From: Candidatus Saccharimonadota bacterium
GTDB lineage: Bacteria; Patescibacteriota; Saccharimonadia; Saccharimonadales; Saccharimonadaceae
DNA: 32,000 bases
Direction of reading: 5' to 3'
Assembly: GCA_020160975.1 (NCBI GenBank)
Contig: JAIUPJ010000001.1
Coordinates: 360,001 to 392,000, forward strand
Below the pieces are notes generated by a model that saw nothing but the letters and a program-made list of their open reading frames with translations, did not search any database and was not told where the DNA came from. Position numbers and translations under genes: made by a program. This document shows positions 10,592 through 31,028 of this stretch, in pieces. Each line of letters opens with the position of its first letter. Position 1 is the first letter of the stretch.

Positions 10592-10596
10592 GGGTA

Positions 10597-11805: not shown

Positions 11806-11808
11806 GAA

Positions 11809-12879: not shown

Positions 12880-12895
12880 GCCCTCTCCCCTTTTC

Positions 12896-14656: not shown

Positions 14657-14665
14657 GGGCAGCTC

Positions 14666-14899
14666 CTAGTTGCTCGTGGCACCACCACCGATAACCGTTT
14701 GCACTGTTGGATTGATTGCACCAGAATTAAACACCTTGGCGTTTGGCGTCTCTACAGCCGTCTCTATTGGTGTCGCCACCGGTACTTTTACGCCTTTTGG
14801 ATCAACCTTGAGGAATGACAGTTGGTCGCCGACAAAAAACGCAATCAACGCTGACACGCTAGCGATCAGAATAATCATTGCAATATCATTTTTTTTCAT
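14666..14899 (-). CDS. Small single-pass membrane protein of the pilus locus (function unknown)
   Basis: 77 aa. An N-terminal TM (IAMIILIASVSALIAFFVG) is followed by a Pro/Val/Thr-rich tail. Its start overlaps the pilO-like stop by 14 nt, and it ends 9 nt before pilB. Confidence 0.5.
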   Translation of the reverse strand: MKKNDIAMIILIASVSALIAFFVGDQLSFLKVDPKGVKVPVATPIETAVETPNAKVFNSGAINPTVQTVIGGGATSN

Positions 14900-15581
14900 T
14901 TGGTTTCACTACCTTATCTGTTAACTCTACGCTCGTTGCGGGCATGTAGTAGGCGTGGGCTTTGAGTGTCATGGTGTATTTTGTAGCACCTTTTTCGAGC
15001 ATGAGATCGTCGACATCGATAACGCGAATCGAACGCTCAAGCTTCACAAGAAGTTCCTTAAGCAAATTTGGATCCGTTGCCGATACTGTCGTGGTAAACG
15101 TCATTTTCTGGGGGCCATCGCTTGCTGAAACGGACGAATTGACCACTGTGTAATCGGCTGACACAGGTGGGTCAACCGCTAGCGATTCAATCGTTACACC
15201 GTCGACTGTTCCGATCAATTTTTGTTGCAATGACGAACCGAGGGCGAGCGTATTCTCGTCAGCTGGCATAGCATCGAGTACTACCTGGAGCGCCTGATCA
15301 TCAGGTTGCGCCTTTATCGAGCTAAGGCTGGCATCCGTCCCTCTCAGGCGAACGTTTTCGATCAGCTGATTGGCAACCTTATTGTTCTTTGTTACTACGC
15401 TGAGAGTCTTGTTGAGCTCCACTGTCACTTTGGTCTTAAAGGCCAACTGTTGAACAAGGAAGATCGAGGCCACGGCACAAACGCCGACAATCGCCGACAT
15501 ACCGGCTACCCAAAAGAACATAGTGCGGTTCGAATTAGCGATAATCTGACGCTTCTTCATACCGGGTTGCGGTGCAGCCAT
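14886..15581 (-). CDS. PilO-like pilus alignment protein
   Basis: 231 aa. The single N-terminal TM, the coiled-coil-like segment and the position directly after pilN support this call. The sequence itself is not diagnostic. Confidence 0.45.
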   Translation of the reverse strand: MAAPQPGMKKRQIIANSNRTMFFWVAGMSAIVGVCAVASIFLVQQLAFKTKVTVELNKTLSVVTKNNKVANQLIENVRLRGTDASLSSIKAQPDDQALQVVLDAMPADENTLALGSSLQQKLIGTVDGVTIESLAVDPPVSADYTVVNSSVSASDGPQKMTFTTTVSATDPNLLKELLVKLERSIRVIDVDDLMLEKGATKYTMTLKAHAYYMPATSVELTDKVVKPNEKK

Positions 15582-16306
15582 TAGTTTGCCTCCTTTGCAT
15601 CTTTTGCTTTTTCGCTAAACAGCGAGTCTGGAACACGCGTACGAGAATCAGTCACGTCCACTTTGCTGTTAGGCGTTACGATGCGGACATTACTGAGCGT
15701 ATTGTCAAACAGTCCGTCAGGATATGTGAACGAAATCGTGAAGCGAAGCACGCGCGCACCATCGGAGCCCTCTCCGTAACTAGTCTGACTAATCACTACC
15801 TGATCAGTCAGTGCAACCGACTGCGTTTCGTCATCGGTAGTGCTCTCAACTTTTGTATTGAGTATAAGCTTGCGGAATGTTTCGGTCGCAGCATAGCCGT
15901 TACTCGCCATACCCTCAATCGTCACCGTCTTTGCGGTTGGGTCGAGTTTGACGCTTGAGTATTTCATATCGTTTGGTGCAGTTGGGTTGATCGCCCCGAT
16001 CACATCGAGCAGACGCGAATCGATCGATTTGTTGTCATGAAGCCTCGTAATTTCCTTGAGTTGTCGCTGAATTGTCAAGGCATTGTCAATGTTTTCGGTA
16101 CCTTGCAGCTTGGCGAACTGCTGTTTGATTTGGTCGCGAGAATAGCCCTCATGCACCGACTGTGCAACCACCAAAAGTGCCAGCAACACAACAATTGCTC
16201 CCGCGGCAATCGCGGCAAAGATCGACAGCGAAATTGCTGTATTGCGCATTTTCTGCGCTTTGATCATTTCTTGCTTGACGTCAGGTATCAGGTTAATTTC
16301 AATCAT
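15581..16306 (-). CDS. pilN: PilN (fimbrial assembly) protein
   Basis: The N-terminus MIEINLIPDVKQE matches the INLLP-type motif and is followed by a single TM. The gene overlaps pilM by 4 nt. Confidence 0.75.
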   Translation of the reverse strand: MIEINLIPDVKQEMIKAQKMRNTAISLSIFAAIAAGAIVVLLALLVVAQSVHEGYSRDQIKQQFAKLQGTENIDNALTIQRQLKEITRLHDNKSIDSRLLDVIGAINPTAPNDMKYSSVKLDPTAKTVTIEGMASNGYAATETFRKLILNTKVESTTDDETQSVALTDQVVISQTSYGEGSDGARVLRFTISFTYPDGLFDNTLSNVRIVTPNSKVDVTDSRTRVPDSLFSEKAKDAKEAN

Positions 16307-17358
16307 ACCGTTCCGCCTCTTTTTGCGAGCCCGATGGCTGTCGCAAACTCAGTTGCGACTGGACCGAGCTGACGCTGATCTTCCTGCGACAATTGAATAC
16401 CTTGCCAAGGATTGGCAACATGCGCCGGCTTGCCAGTCTTGCTGGCTAGATATGCGTCCAGCTGTGGCACCGCAGAAGCAAACCCAGCGATCAGTACCGC
16501 TTGAATCGCCACGCTCGGATAGCGTGTCTCAAAGAACTTAATCGATTTTGAAATCTCCGCTGCAAAACTATCCAGCGACACTTCGAGTGCACGCAATACT
16601 TGCCCCTCGAGCCGATCGGGTGCGAGCCCAAATTTCAAGATAAATTGTCGGGCTTGATCCTCTTGGACATTGAGATTGGCTACTGTTGCTTTGACAAACG
16701 ATGCGAGGCCAGTCGGAATGGTTCGCACCAGTCGCGGAGTATCGCCATACGTGATGGCGATATCGGTCGAATGCTCTCCCATATCAAGCTGCACGACCGC
16801 CCCCGACTGACCAGGAGTAGTCAAGGCGCGCACCATGGCGATTGGGTCTGGTTCGGCTGCAATTACATTGAGACCAAGTGATTCAACTAGCTCTAAGCGC
16901 GCTTCACTGTATTCCCTCGCTACACTCGATAGCAGGACTTCTTGCTGGTTCTGCGCCCGCAGTGATGGGCCGAGAAGCGCCCAATCAACCTTCGCTTCAT
17001 CAACTGCCATCGGAATATACTGATCAATCTGATATTTCATGGTTGCCTTGAGCTCAGACTCGTTGGTATTTGGCACATCAACCACGGTGGTAAAAGTCTT
17101 GCTCGATGGCAAACCGATCACAACATTTTTGCTGCGAATACCGCTCTGACCAACCGCTGTCATGATCACTTCGGCAACCTTGCGGCGCGACTCTTCTGAG
17201 TCGCTACTGGTTAATCTGCTATCTATTGGCGCATAGCCATAATGATCAAGACTCCAGCCCGACCCTGATTTGCGCAGCTGCACCACTCGAATCGCATTCG
17301 TCCCAATATCTAGCGCGAAAAAGTCGCCCATCCCTTTTAGCATACTCATCTTATCCAT
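16303..17358 (-). CDS. pilM: PilM actin-like ATPase of the pilus alignment complex
   Basis: 351 aa. It carries the ..FALDIGTNAIRVVQL.. phosphate-1 motif, ..LDMGEHSTDIAI.. and the overall FtsA/PilM pattern. Confidence 0.85.
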   Translation of the reverse strand: MDKMSMLKGMGDFFALDIGTNAIRVVQLRKSGSGWSLDHYGYAPIDSRLTSSDSEESRRKVAEVIMTAVGQSGIRSKNVVIGLPSSKTFTTVVDVPNTNESELKATMKYQIDQYIPMAVDEAKVDWALLGPSLRAQNQQEVLLSSVAREYSEARLELVESLGLNVIAAEPDPIAMVRALTTPGQSGAVVQLDMGEHSTDIAITYGDTPRLVRTIPTGLASFVKATVANLNVQEDQARQFILKFGLAPDRLEGQVLRALEVSLDSFAAEISKSIKFFETRYPSVAIQAVLIAGFASAVPQLDAYLASKTGKPAHVANPWQGIQLSQEDQRQLGPVATEFATAIGLAKRGGTV

Positions 17359-17403: not shown

Positions 17404-20400
17404 TTAATATCGTGGAGGCAGCTCAGTGATCGCCCGCGTCGTCCATGTTCCGTTAAGCTCAGACAAGCGCCGCGACCAGATATAGGCATCTCCGCGCAAA
17501 TTCAAGGTCTCTGCCGCCCCTCCAGGAGTCGTTTTGTCGGCGCCGGCGGTACGACGCAGGAGAACATGACTAGCGGTCAACGCTCCGTTCACCTGTAGCG
17601 GCTGGTTGCAATCATTGATAGTTAGTTGTCCTGGGCCATTTGAACAGGTGTTAATTGTGCCATTTGGCGCAATCAACCACGCATCGACACGCCCAACTCC
17701 CGCTTGAATATTGATATCTGGCGCCACAATCACTAATTGGTTCATGTTTTTGTCATCAGACGAGGTGTCGTACGTCATATTGGTTGCCGTAATTGTCACT
17801 GTGCCTGTAGCTTGAATTACCGTACTTCTCTTCATAAGTTGATTTGCATTCACAAATGCATTGTCGATTGTCACGGCTCCACTTGGTATTATGTTGACAC
17901 CCTTGAGACCTGGACGAGACAAATACCCTCCAATGTTCGGAATCACACCCATCTGGCTGGCTGGGGCAAAGCTACCATAAGGCATCGTTACATTGGCGTG
18001 GGTCAGCTGGCTCCAGGATTGCTGCTGATCGCTTGCACTCCCCGCAGCGAGTCCGGAGGCCGAAGCAATGCTACGTATCGCATCTGGTGCATACATGCTG
18101 TACTCTCCCCATGAACCATAGGTCAGCTGCTTGGATGTATTCATCGATCCAGACAGACTAATATCTTCGATCATGAGCCCGGTGTGCGTGACTGTTGATT
18201 GCACCCACAACTCAAGCACGTTATCGGCACCTGGCTTAAAACTCTGACATCCTGTGTTGGCATTTTCAAAAGAGAATGGTAGCGTGCCAGCCCAGTAACC
18301 AGACCGCAACCATTGATCCGACCGTACGACCGGTACCCAATCGACATAGTTTCCGGCTGTCGGAAAATTGCGACCTGTCGCGAGCAACTGACATCCGTTT
18401 ACAAATGCTTTTACCCTATTGTCAATCGCACCCGCAATGGTTAGCTTAACGGTTGATAAGTCTGCATCTGCCGGCACAGTAAATTTATCTTTTAGTTTAA
18501 ATTTATAGATGTTGGCATTGTCATAACCACCACCAAGCGCCGAGGGGTCGCGGCACCGACTATCATTGTAGTTCTGACCGAAGACGTTTTGCCCAATCCA
18601 GCTCGCTGAAGTAGAGGTTCGACCCCACACATACGTTCCCACATCGCCAGGGCTAGCATTGCCCACGATCGCTCTTCGCGTAATTTTGATCCCGGCCTTG
18701 TTGCTGCTCTCAACCACGACGTACGCCGGTGTTTCACGGTCCATCGGCACTCTGGATGCACCGTCAAAGGAATATTGGCAGGTTTGCCCGATCGCACTAG
18801 AGCCATTTGGCCGAACTACCCCACTGATAGTCCAGTGTTGGTCGTTGTATTCGGGTTTGTAGAGATCTTTGTCAGATGCACCTCCATCATATGTAGCTGC
18901 TATTTTGCTTCCGCCGGCACCTACCCCAGTGCGCCATAACCCATAGGCTGAACTACCACTGAAGCTCCCTGTTGTCGAACCACCTTCGCGTGTACTAATC
19001 TTCCCTGTTATCCCAGAAGCAGCTGCGAGACCAGAGGTGATCGCCGAACCAACTCGCCCATCGTTCCCCCATATCTGAACTGTTGGCGACCTGCCAACCA
19101 GCACACAACTTGTCAGCCAGTCCGTCACCATCACCCTCACCCCAAGAGTAGGGGTCGAGATACGCCAGGCTGCACACACTCTACCGCCTTTTTGCATATC
19201 AAGCACACTAGTATTCATCGTAATTTCCTGGACACTGCCATCGGCCCTCACTGTGGCTACAGATGCACCCCCCGAGCCAAAAGGGCTACCCGTTGAAGAC
19301 GTATCAAAGTAACGACTGTCTCCCGTTGCTGGGTCATACGTTCTATCGGTTGCAGATTTTTCATACCAAATCCAGGCACTGTACTCTACCCTTGTGTCAA
19401 TCGCCGGCTGTGTATCATTTTTCACCTTAAACCGCGCCGTAAAACTTGACTCGTCAGTCGCGGTTGATCCGTCGGTCGGAGTGGTTTCAAGAATTGGCGT
19501 AATACCCCCGCGAGCCATTACCCGCACACACGACCAGGGGCTGGCACCACTGCCACCAGTTTGGTCTTTTGGCGCATATTCCAGCCGATGACAGAACGTA
19601 CTGCCGACATCCTCATTGCGAATCGTATAAGGGCCATAACATTCACCGGAGCCAGGAGGGTTAACTGTCGTCGTACCGCTACTCGAAAATGTGTACGCCG
19701 AGCCAGCAGGATTATTCTGTCGATCGCTGCCTGCAACACCAGCAATTTGGCAAGCATAGGTATAATCAATTGACCGCGACGAAAATAAGCCCGCTGTTTG
19801 GGTTGTTGTTAGATTATGTCTCCACAGAACGGTATCTCCCGGATAAACCACTGCATCGGCGGCGGCAACACTGCTCGAACCGTTGACATACGCATTCGAT
19901 ACAGCGCTATTGGTATATTTCGGTGCTGGTGGCGTACGTATCACCGTCACCTCGACTGGTTGTGCGTAGCACGATCCGCTCACTGATGTCCCATTACTAC
20001 TCATACAGCGGTACAAGTCGATAGTTATTGTCTCCTGTGCTGGAGAAGTAGCGTTATTCGTTGCGAGGCCAGTAACGTTAAGAGTCGCGGCTAAAGTGTT
20101 TCCCTGACTTGAGTAATAATATGGTGCAGGGCTAGGCAATCTACCTCGATACAATGAGGTTGATGAGAGTCCTGTCAACCTCCAGCCATTGCTTCCCCGC
20201 GGTGCGATATTAATTGCGTATGTTGGTCCGGGAAAGCCGTACATGCACGCATATACCGACCCTGCAATCTGTACCGGCACAGAATTTTGACCATCAGCCA
20301 CGACCACATTCTGTGTATAATAACTTGCTCCGCTGTTCGCAAACCAGATCGCTCCGCGTGCCCCATACGACGTCCCGGCAGCATAATTGCACATCCACCA

Positions 20401-20574
20401 TGCAGAGTTTTCTGCATTATTGAACCCGTAGTTGTTGTGATTTCTTGCAGGATCGCCCACTGCAGCAGAGGCAACGTCGCCGTGCAATAGCGATGCCGTC
20501 CCAACAGCAAGAGACAGCGCCATGACAGTGATGAGTTTTGAGAGAGCCGTCAATCGCATGCTAGCCCTGTACAT
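17404..20574 (-). CDS. Large secreted protein, function unknown; candidate pilus-associated adhesin
   Basis: 1056 aa. The signal peptide is MRLTALSKLITVMALSLAVGTASLLHGDVASA. A segment around residues 690-800 (..LTIAGAIDNRVKAFVNGCQLL..VLELWVQS..) looks like a PA14/lectin-type jelly-roll. The protein contains many Cys residues. The gene ends 45 nt upstream of pilM on the same strand. Confidence 0.6.
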   Translation of the reverse strand: MYRASMRLTALSKLITVMALSLAVGTASLLHGDVASAAVGDPARNHNNYGFNNAENSAWWMCNYAAGTSYGARGAIWFANSGASYYTQNVVVADGQNSVPVQIAGSVYACMYGFPGPTYAINIAPRGSNGWRLTGLSSTSLYRGRLPSPAPYYYSSQGNTLAATLNVTGLATNNATSPAQETITIDLYRCMSSNGTSVSGSCYAQPVEVTVIRTPPAPKYTNSAVSNAYVNGSSSVAAADAVVYPGDTVLWRHNLTTTQTAGLFSSRSIDYTYACQIAGVAGSDRQNNPAGSAYTFSSSGTTTVNPPGSGECYGPYTIRNEDVGSTFCHRLEYAPKDQTGGSGASPWSCVRVMARGGITPILETTPTDGSTATDESSFTARFKVKNDTQPAIDTRVEYSAWIWYEKSATDRTYDPATGDSRYFDTSSTGSPFGSGGASVATVRADGSVQEITMNTSVLDMQKGGRVCAAWRISTPTLGVRVMVTDWLTSCVLVGRSPTVQIWGNDGRVGSAITSGLAAASGITGKISTREGGSTTGSFSGSSAYGLWRTGVGAGGSKIAATYDGGASDKDLYKPEYNDQHWTISGVVRPNGSSAIGQTCQYSFDGASRVPMDRETPAYVVVESSNKAGIKITRRAIVGNASPGDVGTYVWGRTSTSASWIGQNVFGQNYNDSRCRDPSALGGGYDNANIYKFKLKDKFTVPADADLSTVKLTIAGAIDNRVKAFVNGCQLLATGRNFPTAGNYVDWVPVVRSDQWLRSGYWAGTLPFSFENANTGCQSFKPGADNVLELWVQSTVTHTGLMIEDISLSGSMNTSKQLTYGSWGEYSMYAPDAIRSIASASGLAAGSASDQQQSWSQLTHANVTMPYGSFAPASQMGVIPNIGGYLSRPGLKGVNIIPSGAVTIDNAFVNANQLMKRSTVIQATGTVTITATNMTYDTSSDDKNMNQLVIVAPDINIQAGVGRVDAWLIAPNGTINTCSNGPGQLTINDCNQPLQVNGALTASHVLLRRTAGADKTTPGGAAETLNLRGDAYIWSRRLSELNGTWTTRAITELPPRY

Positions 20575-21337: not shown

Positions 21338-21355
21338 TGCTTCTCTCCTGCTATT
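21338..21355 (+). repeat. Left copy of the 18-bp direct repeat TGCTTCTCTCCTGCTATT
   Basis: An exact match to 27308..27325. It overlaps the stop codon of the cytochrome-b5-like gene. Confidence 0.9.
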
Positions 21356-21752
21356 CTTTAGCAAGTATTCCGATTTTGAGCTTAGCAAGTTGTTCGCTTG
21401 CCGCCTCGCTATGAGGGGTGCCTGAACCAACTGGCTGCCCCTCTTGAGTCTGACGTTTTGTAAATAAGGTTGTTGCATCCGTGCCACACGCCCGAAGTAT
21501 TTCATCACCCCCCGGATGACGATTAATAAACTTGGTCAAATCATATACGTCTCCAGATATAATTGCCCAGCAGTCTTCTTTTGAATCATGCTGTGCGACC
21601 TCGTTCATGGTGAATGTTTTTGCTTGTTCGGGTGCGTCTTGAGATGGTGTGTGGGGTTGGCGATTGACTACAAGCACCCAGATACCTGCTCCGATAGCGA
21701 CAACTAGGAATACGGCGATTACAGGTAATATGACGTCGCTCTTCTTACGCAT
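21351..21752 (-). CDS. Membrane-anchored cytochrome b5-like heme-binding domain protein
   Basis: 133 aa. An N-terminal TM is followed by ..FTMNEVAQHDSKEDCWAIISGDVYDLTKFINRHPGGDEIL.., which contains the HPGG motif. A later ..TPHSEA.. offers a candidate second His ligand. Confidence 0.7.
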   Translation of the reverse strand: MRKKSDVILPVIAVFLVVAIGAGIWVLVVNRQPHTPSQDAPEQAKTFTMNEVAQHDSKEDCWAIISGDVYDLTKFINRHPGGDEILRACGTDATTLFTKRQTQEGQPVGSGTPHSEAASEQLAKLKIGILAKE

Positions 21753-21788
21753 GAGTAACTCCTTTGTTCAGTATTGATGTCACTACTC

Positions 21789-22451
21789 CTAGTATCCCCA
21801 TTCTTGCTGCCATTGCTTCATCTGTTCGATTTCTTTTGTTTGAGCGGCTATAACCTCTCTCGCCAAGTCTTTGAGTTCTTGGTGATTGGCATTTGTTTCA
21901 GCGTAGCGAGACATCTCAATAGCTTGTTCATGATGAAGAATCATTTGTTTAAGAAACTCCTTATCGTATTCCTCGCCCTTGAGGTCTTTTAGTTTGTTCA
22001 TCATCTCGACCATATCACCGCCCATATCCATGCCAGCTCCACTATGACTCATGTGACCGCCACTCATCGTCTCTTTATACCCCCACTCTTTTTGCCACTC
22101 TCGCATTTTCATCACTTCTTGTCCTTGCGTCTGTATGATGTTGGTGGAAAGAGTGCGGATTTCTTCGTGGGCTGTAACGGCTCCAGCCTGCTCCGCCATA
22201 TTGAGAGCGCCGTCATGATGAGCTAGCATGTCAGCAATAAAGGCTTCGTCAAACTCGTCGCCGTAGAGAGTGGCGTATTTACTATCTGTGGTTTTCTCGT
22301 CATTAATAGTTTGCTGGGTCGTCTTCATGTCTTGAGCATCAGAAGTCTTTTCGGGTTTAATCGAAAAGACCCCAAAGTACCAAATGGCGGCCGCAAAAGC
22401 CACCAACACGATGATGATAACGGCAAACAGCTTGTTCTTCGTTATTTTCAT
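21789..22451 (-). CDS. DUF305 family protein (paralog a), membrane-anchored, with a Met/His-rich linker
   Basis: There are two DUF305 half-repeats (FIADMLAHHDGALNMAE and FLKQMILHHEQAIEMSR). They are separated by the linker MSGGHMSHSGAGMDMGGDMVEMM. Confidence 0.8.
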   Translation of the reverse strand: MKITKNKLFAVIIIVLVAFAAAIWYFGVFSIKPEKTSDAQDMKTTQQTINDEKTTDSKYATLYGDEFDEAFIADMLAHHDGALNMAEQAGAVTAHEEIRTLSTNIIQTQGQEVMKMREWQKEWGYKETMSGGHMSHSGAGMDMGGDMVEMMNKLKDLKGEEYDKEFLKQMILHHEQAIEMSRYAETNANHQELKDLAREVIAAQTKEIEQMKQWQQEWGY

Positions 22452-23077
22452 TACTCTCCCTTTTGTAAGTCTTCTAATCTTTTAATATCGTTCTTGTAGC
22501 TGGTGAGGCTTTTATTTTTGAATTCAATCAGCTTGCCATATTGAAGATCGCTAACCACACCGCTGTCCTGAATTGCGCCCTCGTGGTGTGCAATCATAAG
22601 ACTAATGAAAAGCCTGTCTGCGTCACTACCGGTTGCAGCTTTAAGCGTTGCCATGTTTGTTGCTGACGCGAGGCCAAGAAAAGTAGGGTACATGTCATGA
22701 CCGTCCATTTCAGGAAAATCAGACAGATTCGTGTATGTTTCGTTCCACTCGCCCAGCCAGCTCTTATATTGATCTTCGGCGCTTTTTTGCTCCTGTTGTA
22801 TCTTTGTAGCTATTTCACGGACAACTTGGTTGGTTGATACCGCTAAGACGGCCTCTGTCATCTCTATAGCTTGTTGGTTGTGGACAATCATCTTTCGAGA
22901 GAAGTCTACATCAGAAAAATCATGTTTGTTTGGATCGGGTTGATTTTGATTGTTACTTACAGGAGGCGTTGTTTTTGGTGGAGCTGAAACTGACCGGTTT
23001 TGAAAAACCAACCAGCCTAGCACGACCGCACCAACTACCGATGCTGCAATCAGTGTTACTAACGTCTTTTTCATCAC
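22451..23077 (-). CDS. DUF305 family protein (paralog b), divergent
   Basis: The half-repeats are FSRKMIVHNQQAIEMTE (HH replaced by HN) and LFISLMIAHHEGAIQDS. It has no Met-rich linker. An N-terminal TM is present. Confidence 0.7.
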   Translation of the reverse strand: MMKKTLVTLIAASVVGAVVLGWLVFQNRSVSAPPKTTPPVSNNQNQPDPNKHDFSDVDFSRKMIVHNQQAIEMTEAVLAVSTNQVVREIATKIQQEQKSAEDQYKSWLGEWNETYTNLSDFPEMDGHDMYPTFLGLASATNMATLKAATGSDADRLFISLMIAHHEGAIQDSGVVSDLQYGKLIEFKNKSLTSYKNDIKRLEDLQKGE

Positions 23078-23088
23078 TAGACCTCGCT

Positions 23089-23607
23089 CTACCTTGCAAG
23101 AGGCTCTGGGCTTTTCCCCAGATTCCTCATCACATACTCTTCTATTTTCTTTTGATCATAGCTTGCTAATGACTCACTTCTGCGCCACGAACTCAGCTCG
23201 ATAGGCGATGTATTAGCCTGACGGGGTGCAAGTACAATCTTCGTTGGCTTAAACTCTGAATTCGAGAATGGAGCGGACAGAAGACCCTTAAGCTTCTCAA
23301 TTTGATCTTGTGGCAAATCAGGTTGGTACGAGACATAGATTCCGCCATGCTCCATATTGTGTATCACTTGGTCGTCACGAACTTCAGTATCGTAAACGCC
23401 CCATGCAACGGGATTAGCATGCGAGCCAGAAGTAGGCGGTTGGTCACCGCCATACTCCTTGCTGCTCACGTGTTCACGGCCATGATCGGCTTGTTCAATG
23501 CCTGGACGTGGTGGTTCTGGTGGCCTATTTATCTTTCCGATTACCAAAGCCCCGCCAAACGCAATGACGATTGCCCCTATAACAATGGGGAATGGCTTAA
23601 CTTTCAT
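23089..23607 (-). CDS. DUF3105 domain protein, membrane-anchored
   Basis: The segment ..YGGDQPPTSGSHANPVAWGVYDTEVRDDQVIHNMEHGGIYVSYQPDLP.. matches the DUF3105 pattern as I remember it (PP.SG.H...WG.Y...H.LEHG). Confidence 0.75.
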   Translation of the reverse strand: MKVKPFPIVIGAIVIAFGGALVIGKINRPPEPPRPGIEQADHGREHVSSKEYGGDQPPTSGSHANPVAWGVYDTEVRDDQVIHNMEHGGIYVSYQPDLPQDQIEKLKGLLSAPFSNSEFKPTKIVLAPRQANTSPIELSSWRRSESLASYDQKKIEEYVMRNLGKSPEPLAR

Positions 23608-24250
23608 AACCCCAGTCTTTTTGCCATTGTTTCATCTGCTTGATTTCTTTTGTCTGTGCGGTGACGATTGCTTTTGTCAGGTCTTTCACTTCCTGATGTT
23701 CGGCGTTCTTTTCACCTGGTGCAGCCATATCAAGCGCTCCTTGGTGGTGCATGATCATTTGCTCGATAAAAGCTTTGTCAAACTCATCACCCGTCTTTCC
23801 CTCCAGGGCGCTGTTCATACCAGCCATCTCATCCATCATACCCATAGCACTGTGATCCATCATGTTGTCGGCACTTGTCGATGGATAACCCCATTCTTTT
23901 TGCCAAGCCGTCATCTGACTAATCTCACCCTCTTGAGCCGAGATGATGTCGTTCGCCATATCTTTCAGCTCTTGGTGCTTGGCATTTTTCTGTGCTAGCT
24001 TCGCCATATCAACAGCACCTTGGTGGTGGGCTATCATATTGGCGATGAAATTACGGTCATAGGTTTCGCCAGTCATGGCAGCATATTGCTTGTATGTATC
24101 TGACGTTGTATCGACTTGTGCCATTTCTGATAGTGGCTGGACTGAAACGCTTCGGAATAGTTGGTCACGGAACACAAAAGTCGCAACACCCACTACAACT
24201 ACAAAAGCGACAAGACCTACAATTAGCATTTGTTTATTCTTTTTATTCAT
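23597..24250 (-). CDS. DUF305 family protein (paralog c), membrane-anchored, with a Met-rich linker
   Basis: The half-repeats are FIANMIAHHQGAVDMAK and FIEQMIMHHQGALDMAA, joined by the linker NMMDHSAMGMMDEMAGMN. An AGGAG RBS is present. Confidence 0.8.
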   Translation of the reverse strand: MNKKNKQMLIVGLVAFVVVVGVATFVFRDQLFRSVSVQPLSEMAQVDTTSDTYKQYAAMTGETYDRNFIANMIAHHQGAVDMAKLAQKNAKHQELKDMANDIISAQEGEISQMTAWQKEWGYPSTSADNMMDHSAMGMMDEMAGMNSALEGKTGDEFDKAFIEQMIMHHQGALDMAAPGEKNAEHQEVKDLTKAIVTAQTKEIKQMKQWQKDWGYES

Positions 24251-24297
24251 AAAGTACTCCTAATTTAGCTATTTAGTAAAACGTAAACAGCTAAATC

Positions 24298-24672
24298 TCA
24301 AGCACGAAAGACGGTCAAACCAATGTAGGCGGGTACGCCACCAGGGGGTGGTTCTCTATCCCCGGCAGCTCTTGTCTCTTGACTATGCTTTTCTTCAAGG
24401 GCCAAAAGGCGTGATGTCTGGAACTGAACATAAAATGGAGGCTGCGGCTTGTCATCCTCGTCTTTCTCGGTACCTTTGATGAACTCGTCTTTGTGAAGAG
24501 TTGCCGTCGTACAAGCAGTAAAACAATTCGATGAACTTACTTGATGAGATGCACCCCCCATTGAGTGCCCCATATTCATCGTCTGCACAGCAGCCGCATG
24601 TATACCTAACGACAGCACACTGAGTACTGAAAGCATGAATACGGAAACAACTCCTTGGAACACTCGTTTCAT
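24298..24672 (-). CDS. Secreted hypothetical protein with an N-terminal Met/His motif
   Basis: 124 aa. The signal peptide (VVSVFMLSVLSVLSLGIHAAA) is followed by VQTMNMGHSMGGASH, a CxxxC-like stretch (CFTAC), and an acidic and Pro-rich tail. Confidence 0.5.
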   Translation of the reverse strand: MKRVFQGVVSVFMLSVLSVLSLGIHAAAVQTMNMGHSMGGASHQVSSSNCFTACTTATLHKDEFIKGTEKDEDDKPQPPFYVQFQTSRLLALEEKHSQETRAAGDREPPPGGVPAYIGLTVFRA

Positions 24673-24711
24673 ATCTCTATTTTACCGTAATTTACCCCAA
24701 CCGTCATATTT

Positions 24712-24771
24712 CTAGTAGTTTGCTTCGCTGTAATGATGATGGTGATGTTCGTGTTCGTCGTGGTTGTGCAT
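24712..24771 (-). CDS. 19-aa His-rich micro-ORF (MHNHDEHEHHHHHYSEANY)
   Basis: The sequence is not in the ORF track. On the minus strand, the TAA stop of the ATPase is followed directly by GGAGGTAGT and then ATG CAC AAC CAC GAC GAA CAC GAA CAT CAC CAT CAT CAT TAC AGC GAA GCA AAC TAC TAG. Nine of its 19 residues are His. Confidence 0.4.
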   Translation of the reverse strand: MHNHDEHEHHHHHYSEANY

Positions 24772-24780
24772 ACTACCTCC

Positions 24781-26919
24781 TTATAATTTTACCCGTCGTA
24801 AGAACTGTGCGTTGATAGCAACGATAATGGTCGAGAGCGACATTAGAACAGCTCCTAGTGCTGGCGAGAGGACAAAACCAAGTACCGAGGTAACACCAGC
24901 AGCTAGTGGAATCGCCAGAGCATTATAACCAGTCGCCCAAGCAAGGTTTTGAAGCATCTTGCTGTAGGTACGTTTTGAAAGCGTCACGATTTTCGCCACA
25001 CCTCGTGGGTCGCTGCTTGCGAGCACGATTCCAGCCGACTCAATCGCCACATCCGTACCCGCACCAATCGCAATGCCGATATTAGCTTGTGTCAGTGCCG
25101 GTGCATCATTTACTCCATCACCGACCATCGCTACCCGGCTGCCGTCGGCCTGTAACTTCTTGACCGTCTCGGCTTTGTTTTCGGGCAAGACTTCGGCGAA
25201 GTACTCTTTTATACCAAGTTCTTTTGCTACCCATGCCGCCACACCCTTGCTATCACCCGTCAGCATAGCAACTCGCTTACCCATACTGTGAAGTGTTGCC
25301 ACAGCTTCCTTTGATTCCTCACGAATAACATCGGCAAGTAGAATAGCTCCGAGTACCGTCTTATTTTCGATAACATACACGACAGTTTTTCCATCAGTTG
25401 AGGCTTCGCCTGTGGCTGTTTGCAGTTCATCGTCTAGTTCAATATCCAATTCTTCGAGTAATCTCGGCCCACCGACGTAGACGCTTTTTCCGTCAGCCTT
25501 GGCTCGTACACCACGACCAGAAAGTGCCGAAAAGTCAGTGGTGTGAGTTTCCGGCACATTTTGACCGTGTGCATACTGGAAAATCGCTTTCGCAATTGGG
25601 TGTTCTGATTCACGCTCAAGAGCAGCAGCAAGGCCAAGAACATGGTTCTTGTCTTTAGCAATGACATCAACCACACCCTGCTCACCCTTTGTCAGCGTAC
25701 CTGTCTTATCAAACAATACGACGTCGATATTGCGTGCCGCTTCGAGTGCCATTCGTTCACGCACCAGCAGCCCATTCTTTGCCGCTAGCGTCGTAGAGAT
25801 AGCCGTGACAAGTGGGATAGCCAAACCAAGAGCATGTGGACAAGCAATCACTAACACCGTTACGACTCGCTCAAAAATAAACCCAGCCGACTCACCAGCC
25901 AGCCACCAACCAATAAGCGTCAGTAAGGCTGCACCGATAGCAATAAATGTAAGATAAAAAGCCGCTTTGTCTGCGAGTACTTGTGTTTTTGACTTGCTAG
26001 TCTGAGCGTCTTCAACCAGCTTCATGATGCCAGCAAGTGCCGTATCGCTGCCGACTTTCGTGACTTCAATTGTCAGTGCTCCATTAGCGTTAATTGTACC
26101 CCCAATTACCTCGGCTCCAATCGCTTTCTTTACCGGCTTTGATTCACCCGTAAGCATTGACTCGTTTATCTCGGATTCACCTTTGATGACAGTCCCGTCT
26201 ACAGGTACTTGAGTACCCGGGCGAACAAGTATCATATCACCGACTTTGAGCTGGCTGACAGAGACAGTGCGGCTTTTCCCATGTTCGAGTAACTCCGCCT
26301 CATCGGGTAGTAACTTGGCAAGTTCGTTTAACGCACCTTGTGCACTTTCCACCGACGCCATTTCTAGCCAGTGACCAAGCAACATAATCGTCACTAATGT
26401 GGCCAGTTCCCACCAGAAGTCCATACCACTAACGAGCTTGAGCGTGACGAGGCTGCTATAAATAAACGCAACGGTAATCGCCATTGAAATAAGCGTCATC
26501 ATGCCAGGCTGCTTAGCTGCAAGCTCGGCCTTGGCACTCTTTAGGAATACTAAGCCGCCATAGAAAAAGATAATCGCACCAAAAATAGCTGGAATATATT
26601 CGCTGCCAGGAAACATCAGCTCAAAGCCTAGCCAGCCCTGAACGGTGTGCGAAAACAACAGCGTCGGGATAGTCAGCAGAAGACCCAGCCAAAACTTTTG
26701 CTTGAACATATTAGGGCTATGTCCAGCGTGCTTGTCATGGTCGTGTTCATGGGACGGCTGTACCTTTGTCTTTTCTAAAGCCATATGGCACTTCGGACAC
26801 ATGCCTGGCTTGTCTGATGTTACATCAGGGTGCATTGGGCAAGCATACTGCATATCTGACTGTGTGAGCATGGCGTCGTGGCTCATACCTTGGTGATGGT
26901 GATGTTCGTGATGATTCAT
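24781..26919 (-). CDS. copB: Heavy-metal (copper-type) P1B ATPase with a CPH transmembrane motif and a His-rich N-terminus
   Basis: 712 aa. Motifs present are TGES, DKTGTLT, SEHPIAKAI, GDGVNDAPAL and the TM motif VIACPHALGL. The N-terminus is MNHHEHHHHQGMSHD, followed by CPMHPDVTSDKPGMCPKCHM and SHEHDHDKHAGH. Confidence 0.9.
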   Translation of the reverse strand: MNHHEHHHHQGMSHDAMLTQSDMQYACPMHPDVTSDKPGMCPKCHMALEKTKVQPSHEHDHDKHAGHSPNMFKQKFWLGLLLTIPTLLFSHTVQGWLGFELMFPGSEYIPAIFGAIIFFYGGLVFLKSAKAELAAKQPGMMTLISMAITVAFIYSSLVTLKLVSGMDFWWELATLVTIMLLGHWLEMASVESAQGALNELAKLLPDEAELLEHGKSRTVSVSQLKVGDMILVRPGTQVPVDGTVIKGESEINESMLTGESKPVKKAIGAEVIGGTINANGALTIEVTKVGSDTALAGIMKLVEDAQTSKSKTQVLADKAAFYLTFIAIGAALLTLIGWWLAGESAGFIFERVVTVLVIACPHALGLAIPLVTAISTTLAAKNGLLVRERMALEAARNIDVVLFDKTGTLTKGEQGVVDVIAKDKNHVLGLAAALERESEHPIAKAIFQYAHGQNVPETHTTDFSALSGRGVRAKADGKSVYVGGPRLLEELDIELDDELQTATGEASTDGKTVVYVIENKTVLGAILLADVIREESKEAVATLHSMGKRVAMLTGDSKGVAAWVAKELGIKEYFAEVLPENKAETVKKLQADGSRVAMVGDGVNDAPALTQANIGIAIGAGTDVAIESAGIVLASSDPRGVAKIVTLSKRTYSKMLQNLAWATGYNALAIPLAAGVTSVLGFVLSPALGAVLMSLSTIIVAINAQFLRRVKL

Positions 26920-27200
26920 TATTTACCCCTCACATTGTGTAGCTCGTATAGTTGTGATAGCTCGCTTAGTGCCTTCTCTTGTTGTTTTTCATCGCCAGAT
27001 GCCATCATTGCCTTAATATGTGTAGCGATATGGTTTTCAAGCACCAGCTTGTTGAGCGACGCCAGAGACTTCTGAATAGCAAGACTTTGCGTCAAAATAT
27101 CCATGCAATACACATCTCCATCAATCATTTTTTGCAAACCCTTGAACTGGCCTTCGATTATCTTGGACCTGTGTGTCGTTCTCTCTTTTACTGTCTTCAT
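26919..27200 (-). CDS. csoR: CsoR/RcnR-family metal-sensing transcriptional repressor
   Basis: 93 aa. The segment ..IIEGQFKGLQKMIDGDVYCMDILTQSLAIQKSL..LENHIATHI.. carries the family ligand positions Cys, His and then His where CsoR has Cys. The stop overlaps the ATPase ATG by 1 nt. Confidence 0.85.
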   Translation of the reverse strand: MKTVKERTTHRSKIIEGQFKGLQKMIDGDVYCMDILTQSLAIQKSLASLNKLVLENHIATHIKAMMASGDEKQQEKALSELSQLYELHNVRGK

Positions 27201-27602: not shown

Positions 27603-28685
27603 ATGAGCCTGTCCATCGGCATAGTCGGACTGCCAAATGTTGGCAAGTCTACCCTCTTCAATGCGTTAACGCACAATGATATTCTTGCGGCTAACTATCC
27701 ATTTGCGACAATCGAGCCAAATACAGGTGTCGTACCTGTCCCTGATGAGCGCCTGGAAGCACTCGCAAAGCTCTACAGCTCCGAAAAGATCGTCCCAGCG
27801 ACGGTGTCGTTCGTCGACATCGCCGGTCTCGTAGCAGGCGCCAGTAAGGGCGAAGGGCTTGGCAACAAGTTTTTGGCCAACATCCGCGAGTGTGATGCCA
27901 TTGTGCACATTGTTCGTGCGTTTGAAAATGATGATATCATCCATGTCAGCCACGGCATCAACCCCCAACGCGACATTGAGACGATCGAAACCGAGCTCAT
28001 GCTCGCGGATATCGAGACCATCGACCGCGTACTCCCACGCCTACAAAAAGAATCAAAGGCACAGCCAAAGGCAAAGGGTTCGGTACAACTGCTCGAATCG
28101 CTCCGTACCTCACTCGAGCAAGCCGACCCACTTCCTGCTCGTGCCCACACTGCAGAGCTCAAAGAACTTGGGCTACAGCTCCTATCTGCAAAGCCCGTCA
28201 TCTATGTGTTCAATGTCAACGAAGAAACACTCGTCAATGCCGAGGCAAAAGCTGCGCTCACCGCCCTGGCGCGCGAATCAAAAGCGCTGTTCATCTGCGC
28301 CAAGCTCGAGGACGAGCTCAAAGGGCTAAATCCTAGCGACGCCGCCGAGCTACTCGATAGTTACGATATTCCCGAGGCCGGTCTCGTACAAATGATTCAC
28401 GCGGCCTATGATATCCTCGGCCTGCAGAGTTACTTGACTGCTGGGCCAAAAGAAGTCCGCGCGTGGACCATCAAAAAAGGTGCCACGGCACCGCAAGCTG
28501 CTGGTGTGATTCACGGCGACTTTGAGCGCGGATTTATCGCGGCGCAGATCATTGATTATCATGACCTCGTCGCCGCAGGCAGCGAAACAGCCGCAAAAGC
28601 CGCTGGCAAAGTCCGCACCGAGGGAAAAGACTATATCATGCAGCCCGATGACGTGGTAGAGTTTCGATTCAACGTCAGCAAATAA
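27603..28685 (+). CDS. ychF: Redox-regulated ATPase YchF (Obg-like GTPase family)
   Basis: 360 aa. The N-terminus MSLSIGIVGLPNVGKSTLFNALT is followed by ..ATIEPNTGVVPVPDERL.. and ..DIAGLVAGASKGEGLGNKFL... The C-terminal TGS-like end reads VRTEGKDYIMQPDDVVEFRFNV. Confidence 0.95.
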   Translation: MSLSIGIVGLPNVGKSTLFNALTHNDILAANYPFATIEPNTGVVPVPDERLEALAKLYSSEKIVPATVSFVDIAGLVAGASKGEGLGNKFLANIRECDAIVHIVRAFENDDIIHVSHGINPQRDIETIETELMLADIETIDRVLPRLQKESKAQPKAKGSVQLLESLRTSLEQADPLPARAHTAELKELGLQLLSAKPVIYVFNVNEETLVNAEAKAALTALARESKALFICAKLEDELKGLNPSDAAELLDSYDIPEAGLVQMIHAAYDILGLQSYLTAGPKEVRAWTIKKGATAPQAAGVIHGDFERGFIAAQIIDYHDLVAAGSETAAKAAGKVRTEGKDYIMQPDDVVEFRFNVSK

Positions 28686-28892: not shown

Positions 28893-28978
28893 TATTAATT
28901 TTCTACTTTGAATCATCCGTATGATAGGAAAACCTATTTGGTTTTACCTATAATTATACAAATGAGAAGAGGCCGCAC

Positions 28979-29015
28979 CGGGCCCTGCCAACGCTTGATT
29001 GCGTCGCAGGGCCCG
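28979..29015 (-). terminator. GC-rich hairpin just 3' of the high-GC surface-protein gene
   Basis: The arms CGGGCCCTGC and GCAGGGCCCG form a 10-bp stem with a 17-nt loop, 20 nt downstream of the stop at 29036. There is no clear T-run. Confidence 0.35.
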
Positions 29016-29035
29016 ATAACGGCCTCAGAAATCAG

Positions 29036-30014
29036 TCATCTTCTCTCTTGGCGGCGCCGCCGCCACGCCACCAGCAGAACCAAGATCCCGAGAGCCAGGG
29101 CAATGCCCAGACCGATCGGCAGGACGAACGACTCGCCTGGCAACTTGGGCGTCGCGGTCAGGGTTGACCCGTCCGCGCTCTCATTCAAGCTGTTCTGGTC
29201 GGTGTCCGCTGGCAGCGGACCCTCCGAGTTCGGCGGGATGACCTGGTTCGTCTGGTTCGGCTGGTCGACATACCCTGGTGTTGAGGGGGTGCCGACGACG
29301 AGAGTCGCGGTGCGGGTTGACCCGTCCGCGCTCTTGATCCAGCTGTTCTGGTCGGTGTCCGCTGGCAGCGGATCCTTCCAGGTCGGCGGGATGACCTGGT
29401 TCGGCTTGTTCGGCGGGTCGACAGACCCTGGTGTCGAGGGAATGTCGACGACGATGACGGGTGGGATGACCACCACGCCGTCGTCCGACGGAAGCCCGAA
29501 GACCTTGGGGGCCGTCGTCTCGTCCGTCCAGGTGCTCCCCTCGACAACGAGAGTCGCGGTGCGGGTTGACCCGTCCGCGCTCTCACTCCAGTCGATCTTG
29601 TCGGTGTCCGCTGACAGCGGATCCTTCCAGGTCGGCGGGATGACCTGGTTCGGCTGGTTCGGCGGGTCGACAAACCCTGGTGTTGAGGGAATGTCGACGA
29701 CGCACGAGAACGGGCGAACGGTGCCGCCGTACGTGCTGTAGTACGGCAAGCCGGTTGGGTCACCGTCCCTGAGCCACATGATCGTGGGCCGGAGCAGGCG
29801 CCTCCTCCTCGGTGACTGTCGGAGCGACGGTCTCCTCTGCTGGCTCGGGAGCCGGCGGGGTGTCGACGACGTCGGAGGCAGCCGGAACGACCGCCTCCGA
29901 GGTCGCGACGACCTCGGTCTGGCTGGGAACGTCATCGGCCGAAGCCGAAGACGCTCCCATGAAGGTCAGGCCGGCGGCAAGGATGCCACAGGCCAGCTTA
30001 CGCGAAATCTTCAC
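29036..30014 (-). pseudogene. High-GC, repeat-containing, C-terminally anchored surface protein gene, interrupted by a frameshift
   Basis: GTG start at 30014 with a GAGGAA RBS. The signal peptide is MKISRKLACGILAAGLTFMGASSASA, followed by an Ala/Pro/Glu/Thr-rich spacer (frame a, stop at 29760). The sensible continuation is in another frame: ..WLRDGDPTGLPYYSTYGG, then three copies of a roughly 51-aa repeat. The C-terminus is ..KLPGESFVLPIGLGIALALGILVLLVAWRRRRQERR, a sorting-signal-like motif plus TM plus basic tail. The N-terminal part of the track ORF 29036..29935 is Arg/Pro/Ser noise from the wrong frame. Confidence 0.6.
29151..29705. repeat. Three intragenic copies of a roughly 153-nt repeat (starts 29151, 29304, 29553)
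   Basis: Each copy begins GTCGCGGT(C/G)(A/C)GGGTTGACCCGTCCGCGCTC.. and continues ..GGTGTCCGCTG(G/A)CAGCGGA(T/C)CC..GGCGGGATGACCTGGTTCG... Copies 1 and 2 are adjacent, with a period of 153 nt. Copies 2 and 3 are separated by an extra 96 nt. Confidence 0.85.
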
Positions 30015-30027
30015 AGTATTCCTCGTT

Positions 30028-30061
30028 TCTGTTCGGATGGATAGTCTGTTCGGATGGATAG
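30028..30061. repeat. Perfect tandem duplication of 17 bp (TCTGTTCGGATGGATAG x2) just upstream of the surface-protein RBS
   Basis: 30028..30044 is identical to 30045..30061. The repeat lies 14-47 nt upstream of the GTG start at 30014, at the boundary where GC content changes. Confidence 0.85.
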
Positions 30062-30080
30062 AAATGGATGACTTGATTGT

Positions 30081-30107
30081 TAATCGCTCGCATCTAGCGA
30101 GCGATTA
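30081..30107. promoter_or_regulatory. Perfect 11-bp palindrome TAATCGCTCGC-atcta-GCGAGCGATTA (operator or terminator candidate)
   Basis: Read directly from the sequence. It lies between the tlyA stop (30264) and the surface-protein start (30014), and has no adjacent T-run. Confidence 0.3.
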
Positions 30108-30263
30108 TCGCTCAAGCCAGCCACGAACACTGCACCCCACCTCACGTGTTGGCAAGGTGCTATGCTACCACTATATTATCACATTTACCTGAAAAAGTAA
30201 ATGGTAACCGTATTCAAGCTATACACCACTTCCATACCGGACAGCGGCTGCATCCTGGACATA

Positions 30264-31028
30264 CTACTTCGCTACCTTTTTCAGCACATAGAACCGCTCT
30301 TGGTTACCCCGTGCACCTTTGATATCGCTATCCGCCTTGTCGACAATTACAAAATACTGCTTGGCCCACTGCTCAAACCCTCTTAGAATACTGCGGCGCA
30401 CGCTATCGTTCTTAATCACCCCACTGCTACCAATTTGCCCATGAGTGGCCTCGAACTGTGGCTTCACCATGGCTAAAATCACCGCCGCAGGACCACAAAG
30501 CGCTGCGACCGATGGCAAGATTTGCTGAAGGCTCACAAAAGACACATCGATCACCACGATGTCTGGCTGGGTGGCAATCTCGATGCGAGCGTTACGTTCA
30601 CCTTTTTCCTTATTTGCTACTATGACATCGCGAATATCAGTTTTTTCGTGCAACTCAATCCGCTCATCGCCCCGTAAGCTCGGGTGCAGTTGATCCGTCC
30701 CAATATCCACAGCAATGACTTTTTTGGCTCCATGTTGCAGTGCGTAATCAGTAAAGCCGCCGGTACTGCTGCCGACATCGAGCACAGTAGTACCAGCAAA
30801 CTGAACTCCGAATTTATTCACAACACTCGCCAGCTTCAATCCCGCTCGGCTGACATACTGCTCGGGAGCGGATAATTCAATACGCGCCGACTCATCCACA
30901 AAATACCCCGGCTTTGTCACCTCCCTGCCATCGACTGTCACGCGACCAAGCTTAATCCAACTCTCCGCCTGTGAGCGCGTGGGAGTCAAGCCTCGTATCG
31001 TTACTGCGTGGTCAAGCCGCTGTTTCAT
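30264..31028 (-). CDS. tlyA: TlyA-family rRNA 2'-O-methyltransferase (S4 domain plus FtsJ-like methyltransferase)
   Basis: 254 aa. The motifs present are ..RLDHAVTIRGLTPTRSQAESWIKLGRVTVDGREVTKPGYFV.., YVSRAGLKL and VLDVGSSTGGFTDYALQHGAKKVIAVDIG. Confidence 0.9.
   Translation of the reverse strand: MKQRLDHAVTIRGLTPTRSQAESWIKLGRVTVDGREVTKPGYFVDESARIELSAPEQYVSRAGLKLASVVNKFGVQFAGTTVLDVGSSTGGFTDYALQHGAKKVIAVDIGTDQLHPSLRGDERIELHEKTDIRDVIVANKEKGERNARIEIATQPDIVVIDVSFVSLQQILPSVAALCGPAAVILAMVKPQFEATHGQIGSSGVIKNDSVRRSILRGFEQWAKQYFVIVDKADSDIKGARGNQERFYVLKKVAK

Follow-up and report, generated by a model that had tools for sequence, protein, structure and literature searches.

Layout of the tlyA-ychF interval

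We analyzed a GC-rich surface-protein gene in a 32,000-nucleotide stretch of DNA (the window) from Candidatus Saccharimonadota contig JAIUPJ010000001.1. The minus strand encodes this gene, from a GTG start codon at 30014 to a stop codon at 29036-29038. It lies between tlyA, its upstream neighbor, and ychF, its convergent downstream neighbor. Domain scans identify the former as the gene for a TlyA-like rRNA methyltransferase with S4 and FtsJ domains (30264..31028, minus strand) and the latter as a GTPase gene (27603..28685, plus strand). An initial annotation, made from the sequence alone, had considered a Saccharibacteria-type genome, and the source of the DNA indeed names Candidatus Saccharibacteria and Patescibacteria. 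It had also proposed that the gene passed to this epibiont from its host; our analysis points instead to an old resident gene that was inactivated in the window strain.

As judged by inspection of the translation, the gene opens with its GTG start codon and a Sec-type signal peptide (MKISRKLACGILAAGLTFMGASSASA; 29937..30014, minus strand) that has n-, h- and c-regions and a predicted cleavage site between ASA and DD. The intact alleles P0001, P0002 and P0004, described below, encode exactly the same signal peptide. A lipoprotein signal was considered and rejected, as the residue at position -3 before the cysteine is lysine. The remnant of an acidic, Pro/Ala/Glu-rich linker (29760..29936, minus strand), delimited from the list of open reading frames (ORFs) and an alignment with intact alleles, runs as far as a deletion junction, with a premature TGA at 29760-29762. 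In the ORF list, this upstream part is an 84-amino-acid ORF (29760-30014, minus strand). Downstream is a 247-amino-acid ORF in the +1 frame (29036..29779, minus strand; ATG at 29777-29779, stop at 29036-29038), which corresponds to P0003 and is annotated as LCH21_02110. This ORF is without a signal peptide, and no Shine-Dalgarno-like sequence was seen upstream of it on inspection.

The downstream part contains three copies of a core repeat of about 153 bp (51 amino acids) that share 88-92% nucleotide identity. According to hidden Markov model (HMM) domain coordinates, only the first is a complete domain of about 80 amino acids (VDIPSTPGFVDPPNQPNQVIPPTWKDPLSADTDKIDWSESADGSTRTATLVVEGSTWTDETTAPKVFGLPSDDGVVVIPP; 29459..29698, minus strand), and its AlphaFold2 model is small and beta-rich, with a predicted local distance difference test (pLDDT) score of 96.4. 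The second unit consists of the first 52 residues of the domain only (29294..29449, minus strand), and the third is a degenerate first half (29144..29293, minus strand). A C-terminal anchor (29039..29143, minus strand) completes the protein and comprises the pentapeptide LPGES (29129-29143), a 22-residue hydrophobic helix (FVLPIGLGIALALGILVLLVAW; 29063-29128) and a positively charged RRRRQERR tail (29039-29062). Thus the signal peptide, the three repeats of about 51 residues and the C-terminal helix with its basic tail are all present as initially described. Sequence inspection also finds a long GC-rich hairpin followed by a T-rich tract beyond the stop codon (28959..29026, minus strand). The hairpin is kept in conspecific strains, a partial terminator-like match lies at 28985-28970, and this structure is likely the terminator and the 3' limit of the GC-rich island.

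The break between the two ORFs is explained by a deletion. In DNA alignments with L009, L010, L011 and L012, the window allele is missing 383 bp between two copies of an 8-bp direct repeat (GCTCCGGC), and the sole remaining copy marks the scar (29788..29795, minus strand). The lost DNA encoded most of the Pro/Ala/Glu-rich linker and an N-terminal domain of about 100 amino acids. Because 383 leaves a remainder of 2 on division by 3, the frame shifts by +1 and the signal peptide runs into the TGA; the signal peptide and the repeats are in different frames. The interval had first been read as one gene of about 1 kb, and it is a single gene, but one whose frame the deletion has broken into the 84-amino-acid ORF and the +1-frame ORF. 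As far as can be judged from the sequence, the window copy is most likely a nonfunctional deletion pseudogene. Public gene calls cut the real gene to its 84-amino-acid fragment, and the NCBI annotation retains only the 247-amino-acid piece. A spurious plus-strand ORF lies opposite the gene (window 28908-29741; 267 amino acids in public calls, 277 in the ORF list), and spurious opposite-strand ORFs are also found at L001 4957-5760, L002 4943-5746 and L003 2552-3355.

The deletion allele and intact alleles both occur in nature between the same genes. A 40-mer that spans the deletion junction is found in L001-L003, and a marker of the intact allele is found in L009-L011. A segment of 1,700 bp that includes both island junctions is 100% identical in ENA ERZ27233584, JGI 3300026288 and JGI 3300003765, which are separate assembly records, possibly from shared reads. 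An assembly chimera, which the initial annotation had raised as a concern at both junctions, is excluded by the recurrence of this segment. Several further contigs end within the repeats. Intact alleles lie between the same flanks in L009-L013 (four further sample records), and their flanks on the tlyA and ychF sides are 98-99% identical to the window. A protein search returned intact conspecific products of 453 (P0002), 534 (P0001) and 392 (P0004) amino acids.

The conspecific alleles differ by whole units of 243 bp, so that the domain of about 80 amino acids is present in two, three or four copies. Within the species, the rate of synonymous substitution (dS) is 0.03-0.06 in the gene and 0.03-0.07 in the flanking ychF, tlyA and bla-like genes, whereas the ratio of nonsynonymous to synonymous rates (dN/dS) is 0.5-0.8 in the gene and 0.03-0.26 in those flanks. 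A dS equal to that of the flanks, together with a higher dN/dS, indicates that the gene is resident and that its protein is evolving fast. Among the three conspecific alleles compared, most substitutions fall on the unrooted L012 branch. The strains also differ nearby: L011 and L012 (2291-2659 in each) have a 122-amino-acid bAvd/23S-rRNA-IVP-like gene between the S18 and EF-P genes that is absent from the window-type L001.

Composition, promoter and leader

The island (28959-30014) has a GC content of 65.7% in a composition count across the window, compared with 49.5% for the rest of the window, 50.0% for the window on average, and 41.4% and 46.2% for the intergenic flanks to its left and right. 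These values agree with the GC content of about 65% that was first estimated. GC content at third codon positions (GC3) is 0.836 in the longer, downstream ORF and 0.729 in the 84-amino-acid ORF. For the remaining 28 ORFs of the window, mean GC3 is 0.516 (standard deviation 0.052, range 0.41-0.59, maximum 0.589), which gives z = 6.2 and 4.1 for the two pieces. By this measure the gene looks foreign: its composition is outside the range of the other ORFs, and the flanking tlyA and ychF have the native composition (GC3 of 0.545 and 0.587, respectively).

GC content at the first and second codon positions (GC1 and GC2) is raised in the gene as well. A control ORF (17404-20574; 1056 amino acids, rich in Pro, Thr, Ala and Gly) has an equally high GC2 (0.55) and a GC3 of only 0.49. 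The amino-acid makeup of the protein is therefore ruled out as the source of the GC3 shift, and what has shifted is the choice of codons, as the initial annotation had argued. Codon usage of the island gene correlates with that of Ilumatobacteraceae (Actinomycetota) genes at r = 0.83 and with that of its own genome at r = 0.24. Similarly, the copies of the gene in Saccharibacteria give r = 0.75-0.90 with the genes of the Ilumatobacteraceae contig described below and 0.22-0.37 with those of the window, although such a pattern would be expected of any GC3-rich gene.

The step in GC content at the start codon is sharp, and the promoter and leader before it are low in GC, which places the compositional boundary where it had first been drawn. 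A sigma-70-like promoter (30175..30201, minus strand) with a -35 element TTTACT and an extended -10 element TGTGATAAT was recognized by its match to the consensus and in an intergenic alignment of eight lineages. This promoter, of the form TTTACn and TRTGRTATAAT, lies directly after the tlyA stop codon and is kept in all of the syntenic lineages in the alignment. It is followed by a low-GC 5' leader (30015..30168, minus strand) that has a long hairpin core (30066-30122) and a ribosome binding site (AGGA, in the 30012-30026 region). The minimum free energy of the window leader is -56.2 kcal/mol, with z = -4.4 relative to shuffled sequences.

The other lineages have a low-GC leader of 150-230 nucleotides with a comparable long, rod-like hairpin, in which an apical stem is followed by TTAACAATTCGG, and GC content climbs at or shortly after the start codon in all syntenic lineages. 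Their promoter-leader regions are at L014 7795-8010, L015 1781-2014, L026 4806-5053, L019 5433-5617, L023 5764-6010, L028 5779-6010 and L029 5724-6010. RNAalifold gave no consensus structure for the leader on MAFFT alignments, and there was no significant Rfam match. From these sequences, the leader may be an undescribed cis-regulatory element. A perfect 17-bp tandem duplication (TCTGTTCGGATGGATAG twice; 30028-30061) was detected by TRF just upstream of the ribosome binding site; in conspecific strains the duplication has one mismatch.

Relatives of the gene and of its repeat domain

Conspecific strains carry the gene in the same slot between tlyA and ychF, as do at least seven other Saccharibacteria lineages, within a recurring order of S6-SSB-S18-EF-P-(beta-lactamase-like)-tlyA-gene-(sortase)-ychF or a near variant of it. 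These lineages came from P0005 and P0006 search matches, a scan of GTDB genomes (UBA2951 and UBA6223), an exhaustive HMM search and contig look-ups. In the five lineages compared, with L028 and L029 not among them, ychF is 68-79% identical to that of the window. GC3 of the gene exceeds that of its flanks in each lineage: 0.70 in L014/L027 (flanks about 0.47-0.63), 0.88 in L015 (0.54-0.64), 0.88 in L018/L026 of UBA2951 (0.58-0.64), 0.86 in L019 of UBA6223 (0.47-0.60), 0.84 in L023 (0.46-0.63), 0.785 in L028 (0.40-0.62) and 0.935 in L029 (0.40-0.51). At this locus, GC3 of the ribosomal and EF-P genes is unremarkable. Thus the closest relatives of the gene are in Saccharibacteria, with the same high-GC composition and the same position between tlyA and ychF, whether in sister strains or in sister genera. 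They belong to the same candidate phyla radiation (CPR) lineage, an outcome that the initial annotation itself had named as contrary to the host-to-epibiont transfer that it favored.

Between lineages, the gene has diverged more than its surroundings. Amino-acid identity is 65-87% for the housekeeping flanks and 35-55% (local) for the gene. The closest pair of species, L015 and L026, is also the closest pair for the gene (84%), and even in this pair dS in the flanks is greater than 1. Synonymous sites of the flanks appear saturated between lineages, a view taken directly from dS for L015/L026 and from the 65-87% identities for the other pairs. Downstream of the gene, L015 and L026 have a sortase (73-82 bits to Pfam; class-F-like, under the NCBIfam cut-off), and the gene in L019 matches a sortase only weakly. 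The downstream gene of L023 and L029 is a relative of those sortases at 30-36% identity (assigned in L029 by position and motifs, unaligned). The sortase and sortase-like genes have an intermediate GC3 of 0.63-0.79. GC3 is raised in a few other genes of these genomes, at L014 12963-14726 (minus strand, 0.71), L028 9007-10032 (plus strand, 0.74) and L021 5416-5688 (minus strand, 0.67). The products of the first two have signal-like N-termini, and the effect may extend to other secreted proteins.

The domain of about 80 amino acids, with the signature WKDPLPADT...TRTATL, represents an undescribed family. Unit 1 matches the domain profile along its full 80 positions with a score of 145 bits, and units 2 and 3 match the first 52-56 positions; the window sequence is itself a member of the seed alignment behind this profile. 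Two conserved cysteines of the domain are substituted in the window lineage. The domain has no match in Pfam or NCBIfam and none in the PDB by Foldseek (best E = 2), and we found no paper in the open-access literature on the locus, the domain or a GC-rich surface-gene island conserved among Saccharibacteria. In the exhaustive HMM search, 72 clusters among 1.84 billion representatives match the domain at E<=1e-3, whereas word-indexed profile searches with domain alignments gave almost no matches. The motif WKDPLPAD, which is narrow and would miss Actinomycetota copies with variant motifs, was found in two Saccharibacteria metagenome-assembled genomes and in one doubtful Erysipelotrichaceae match among GTDB genomes, and only at two already-known loci in the metagenome collection.

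Most family members of known source are from Saccharibacteria, as are all of the top matches of known source. For example, QQS21675.1, an LPXTG protein from a 1.01-Mb Saccharibacteria genome, is a member. The conspecific genome KC967 (GCA_020428275.1) has a paralogue, KC967_03970/03975 (P0123 and P0122), in which a single domain copy that has both cysteines stands immediately before a canonical LPHTG motif; it is split into two ORFs in that assembly, and its full form is P0020 (714 amino acids). The sole clear case outside the CPR is a pair of tandem LPATG proteins with the domain on a contig of 64% GC. This contig is taken as Ilumatobacteraceae: its PstC shares at least 90% identity with that of a member of this family. 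The domain genes there share the composition of their contig, with GC3 of 0.74-0.78, and score about 55 bits to the window protein, compared with 100-250 bits for the Saccharibacteria homologues. A copy on L022, a contig of 61% GC, is closer to the window protein than the Ilumatobacteraceae copies are.

How the protein is held at the surface seems to differ among relatives. The anchored surface-protein architecture that was first proposed stands insofar as the repeats belong to a secreted, C-terminally anchored protein, but LPGES is not a sortase motif and there is no sortase at the locus. No LPXTG or LAXTG pentapeptide precedes the hydrophobic segment, where LPGES is found instead. When the intact allele was scanned against NCBIfam (E<=1), the sole matches were MYXO-CTERM and CcmD, both sub-threshold, with no LPXTG-anchor model among them. 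No sortase was found among the window ORFs scanned or at the locus of the window species. Because of the LPGES sequence and the lack of a sortase at the locus, we infer that in the window species the protein is probably anchored in the membrane by its helix and not linked to the wall. The LPHTG motif of the KC967 paralogue suggests that there is a sortase elsewhere in the genome. Relatives carry the canonical motifs LPATG, LPNTG or LPHTG, and in those that retain the enzyme we infer processing by sortase. Many homologues without LPXTG share the motif [DEHN]-[AT]-G-[aliphatic] 15-30 residues before the hydrophobic helix (P0005, P0009, P0010, P0015-P0018, P0024, P0040, P0058, P0064, P0073 and P0075). 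This motif may be the recognition site of the adjacent, divergent sortase-like genes.

Two other gene clusters are found in the window. A type IV pilus cluster (7012-17358) contains pilin-like genes and genes for a prepilin peptidase, PilC, PilT-like and PilB-like ATPases and PilM; it adjoins the ORF for the 1056-amino-acid protein (17404-20574), which has no Pfam match. A likely copper-handling cluster (21351-27200) encodes a cytochrome b5-like protein, three DUF305/DUF4142 proteins, a DUF3105 protein, a P-type ATPase with a heavy-metal-binding domain and a CsoR-type repressor.

Origin and upkeep of the composition

Based on these results, we conclude, with a probability of roughly 75%, that the region represents an allele, specific to this strain and inactivated by a deletion, of a surface-protein gene resident in Saccharibacteria, and that its GC-rich composition is old and not the product of recent transfer. 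We propose that the intact protein would be exported by Sec and would consist of an acidic Pro/Ala/Glu linker, an N-terminal domain of about 100 amino acids and two to four tandem domains of about 80 amino acids, with retention at the surface by the C-terminal hydrophobic helix and Arg-rich tail. The protein would vary by unequal recombination between repeats and by elevated amino-acid substitution. In the window species, the sortase would have been lost from the locus and the sorting motif would have decayed to LPGES; in the window strain, the 383-bp deletion would then explain why signal peptide and repeats are now separated. The codon usage, GC-rich and like that of Actinomycetota, would be an old property of the whole locus. 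An unconstrained gene would drift to the genomic GC3 at saturated sites, and the composition has therefore been maintained or refreshed, either by a force specific to this gene (biased conversion or weak selection) or because the coding cassette is exchanged. The gene may plausibly have arisen long ago in high-GC Gram-positive bacteria, and the domain in Ilumatobacteraceae LPXTG proteins is a possible sign of an old link to Actinomycetota.

Several observations weigh against this conclusion. The lineages were located by means of the gene itself, and the counts of its presence are not a frequency among Saccharibacteria. The sortase-like genes are only 30-36% identical between lineages. In L021, a GC-rich cassette pair (GC3 of 0.82 and 0.74) is at another locus, against a background of 0.40-0.51. 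Between L015 and L026, differences are found at 30-31% of four-fold sites in the gene and sortase and at 58% in the flanks (Fisher p = 5e-7 for the sortase relative to the flanks), with a block of high identity that extends from after the signal-peptide region to the end of the sortase; this contrast suggests that the cassette can be younger than its flanks. The neighbor-joining tree of the domain is star-like and leaves Saccharibacteria and Actinomycetota copies unseparated, and the model of the full-length protein has a pLDDT of 33. Finally, a role as a variable adhesin or host-contact protein, which we consider most likely, is drawn from architecture: it is suggested by the surface location, the hypervariability, the change in copy number and a domain that is common to wall proteins of Actinomycetota.

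If a high-GC Actinomycetota host had recently passed a cell-wall-anchored surface protein to the epibiont, and the gene were still unameliorated, this would account for the GC3 of 0.84 in a genome at 0.52, the sharp boundaries, the codon usage that matches Ilumatobacteraceae better than its own genome, and the occurrence of the domain in Actinomycetota LPXTG proteins. Transfer of other genes from Actinomycetota to Saccharimonadia has also been reported in wastewater plants (bioRxiv 10.64898/2026.09.16.751625). Nonetheless, we give this origin hardly any credence. Syntenic homologues of the same composition are found in at least seven other Saccharibacteria lineages, the nearest relatives of known source are all Saccharibacteria, the Actinomycetota homologues are farther away in score, dS within the species is that of the flanks, and the native promoter and leader are kept across lineages. 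There is also no integrase, tRNA target, duplicated attachment site or flanking direct repeat beside the island; the 17-bp repeat upstream of the gene is tandem and not flanking, a recombinase-like ORF comes no closer than 4969-5883, and the tRNAs lie at 1551-4306. It is also very improbable that the window copy is a functional short isoform, produced by programmed +1 ribosomal frameshifting or by independent translation of the 247-amino-acid ORF. The deletion allele does persist in nature (in three assemblies and the annotated genome), and a +1 shift near the junction would yield a signal peptide, linker and repeats. However, the frame break coincides exactly with the 383-bp deletion relative to intact alleles, inspection revealed neither a Shine-Dalgarno-like sequence before the internal ATG nor a recognizable slippery site, and the 247-amino-acid product would have no export signal.

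The remaining alternatives concern how the composition arose and was kept. The family might be native, its GC3 raised in place by selection on codons or mRNA or by gene conversion with a GC bias at a hot spot of recombination, with the Actinomycetota copies due to reverse transfer or common ancestry. We regard this as less likely than not. Most members of known source are from Saccharibacteria, where GC3 reaches 0.935, above the 0.74-0.78 of the Ilumatobacteraceae copies; the composition persists across lineages in which synonymous sites of the flanks are apparently saturated; GC3 is raised in other secreted-protein genes of related genomes; and the changes in copy number indicate active recombination within the gene. 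By a hand estimate, 4Ns of about 1.7-2.7 is enough to hold GC3 at 0.84-0.93. Yet GC1 and GC2 are raised too, the boundaries follow the coding sequence closely, unlike what biased conversion alone would give, and the ordinary GC3 of the ribosomal and EF-P genes means that the GC-rich codons are not those preferred in translation. We know of no mechanism for so large a gene-specific shift in GC content. Recurrent replacement or gene conversion of a surface-protein and sortase cassette at a fixed locus, from high-GC donors or from other Saccharibacteria, seems unlikely to us. It would fit a cassette that is GC-rich in every lineage, with intermediate sortases, and whose proteins differ between lineages far more than the flanks do, as well as the L015/L026 block, with about half as many four-fold-site differences as the flanks, and the displaced cassette of L021. 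The window also has type IV pilus genes, which are able to serve DNA uptake in other bacteria. But no close donor was found among the 1.84 billion cluster representatives, repeated landing behind the same native promoter would need breakpoints within the gene each time, the gene of the window species has the dS of its flanks, and compositional constraint lowers apparent synonymous divergence and so accounts for part of the L015/L026 signal.

If the gene is an old resident of this locus, as we favor, it has several implications. How Saccharibacteria recognize and hold their Actinomycetota hosts is poorly understood, and the locus provides a conserved, hypervariable candidate surface protein whose undescribed domain is also present in wall proteins of Actinomycetota. 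It also calls for caution in inferring transfer from composition, as an island of GC3 that is sharp and confined to one gene can be old, syntenic and maintained. That GC3 stays at 0.70-0.94 in genomes at 0.40-0.64, across lineages with apparently saturated flanks, is an unexplained compositional phenomenon. For annotation, the gene poses a problem in that public calls split it or place a spurious ORF on the opposite strand. We also speculate, while thinking it improbable, that the Actinomycetota-like codon usage of the cassette is actively kept, either by repeated conversion from host DNA or by translation that depends on the host-associated state. In the first case, a host-matching surface domain would be kept current from host DNA that is taken up. 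In the second, host-like codons would make translation of the attachment protein depend on association with a host. By either route, the locus would be both a molecular record of host contact and a tool for it.

Exchange between Actinomycetota and Saccharimonadia has been described in wastewater and activated sludge, where a 2026 preprint reports near-identical transferred regions (>99% nucleotide identity) that carry recombinases, a regulator and genes of unknown function, and also points to different (complementary) codon preferences in host and epibiont (bioRxiv 10.64898/2026.09.16.751625). The ecological pairing and the proposed direction are the same as those first proposed for our gene; here, in contrast, no near-identical donor was found. 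For TM7x and its Actinomyces host, McLean et al. 2020 saw no strong signal of transfer (PMC7427843). The protein itself resembles the LPXTG, sortase-anchored MSCRAMM-type adhesins of Gram positives, including Actinomycetota, in its Sec signal, its tandem, small, beta-rich domains, its C-terminal helix and charged tail, and the sortase that adjoins several of the homologous loci. It differs in that the window protein has LPGES, no sortase at its locus and a domain without a Pfam, NCBIfam or PDB match, and in that the low-complexity linker of the family is N-terminal and not beside the wall anchor.

The alpha C and Rib proteins of streptococci are surface proteins with near-identical tandem repeats that vary in number. 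Similarly, our gene has an in-frame unit of 243 bp in two, three or four copies among strains and a raised rate of amino-acid change, although the proteins have no relationship in sequence or fold. Lastly, the sharp break in GC content and GC3 at a single gene and the codon usage like that of another phylum are features shared with genomic islands that are defined by composition. Unlike such islands, the one described here lacks mobility genes, is syntenic across genera, lies behind a conserved native promoter, and has a dS equal to that of its flanks.

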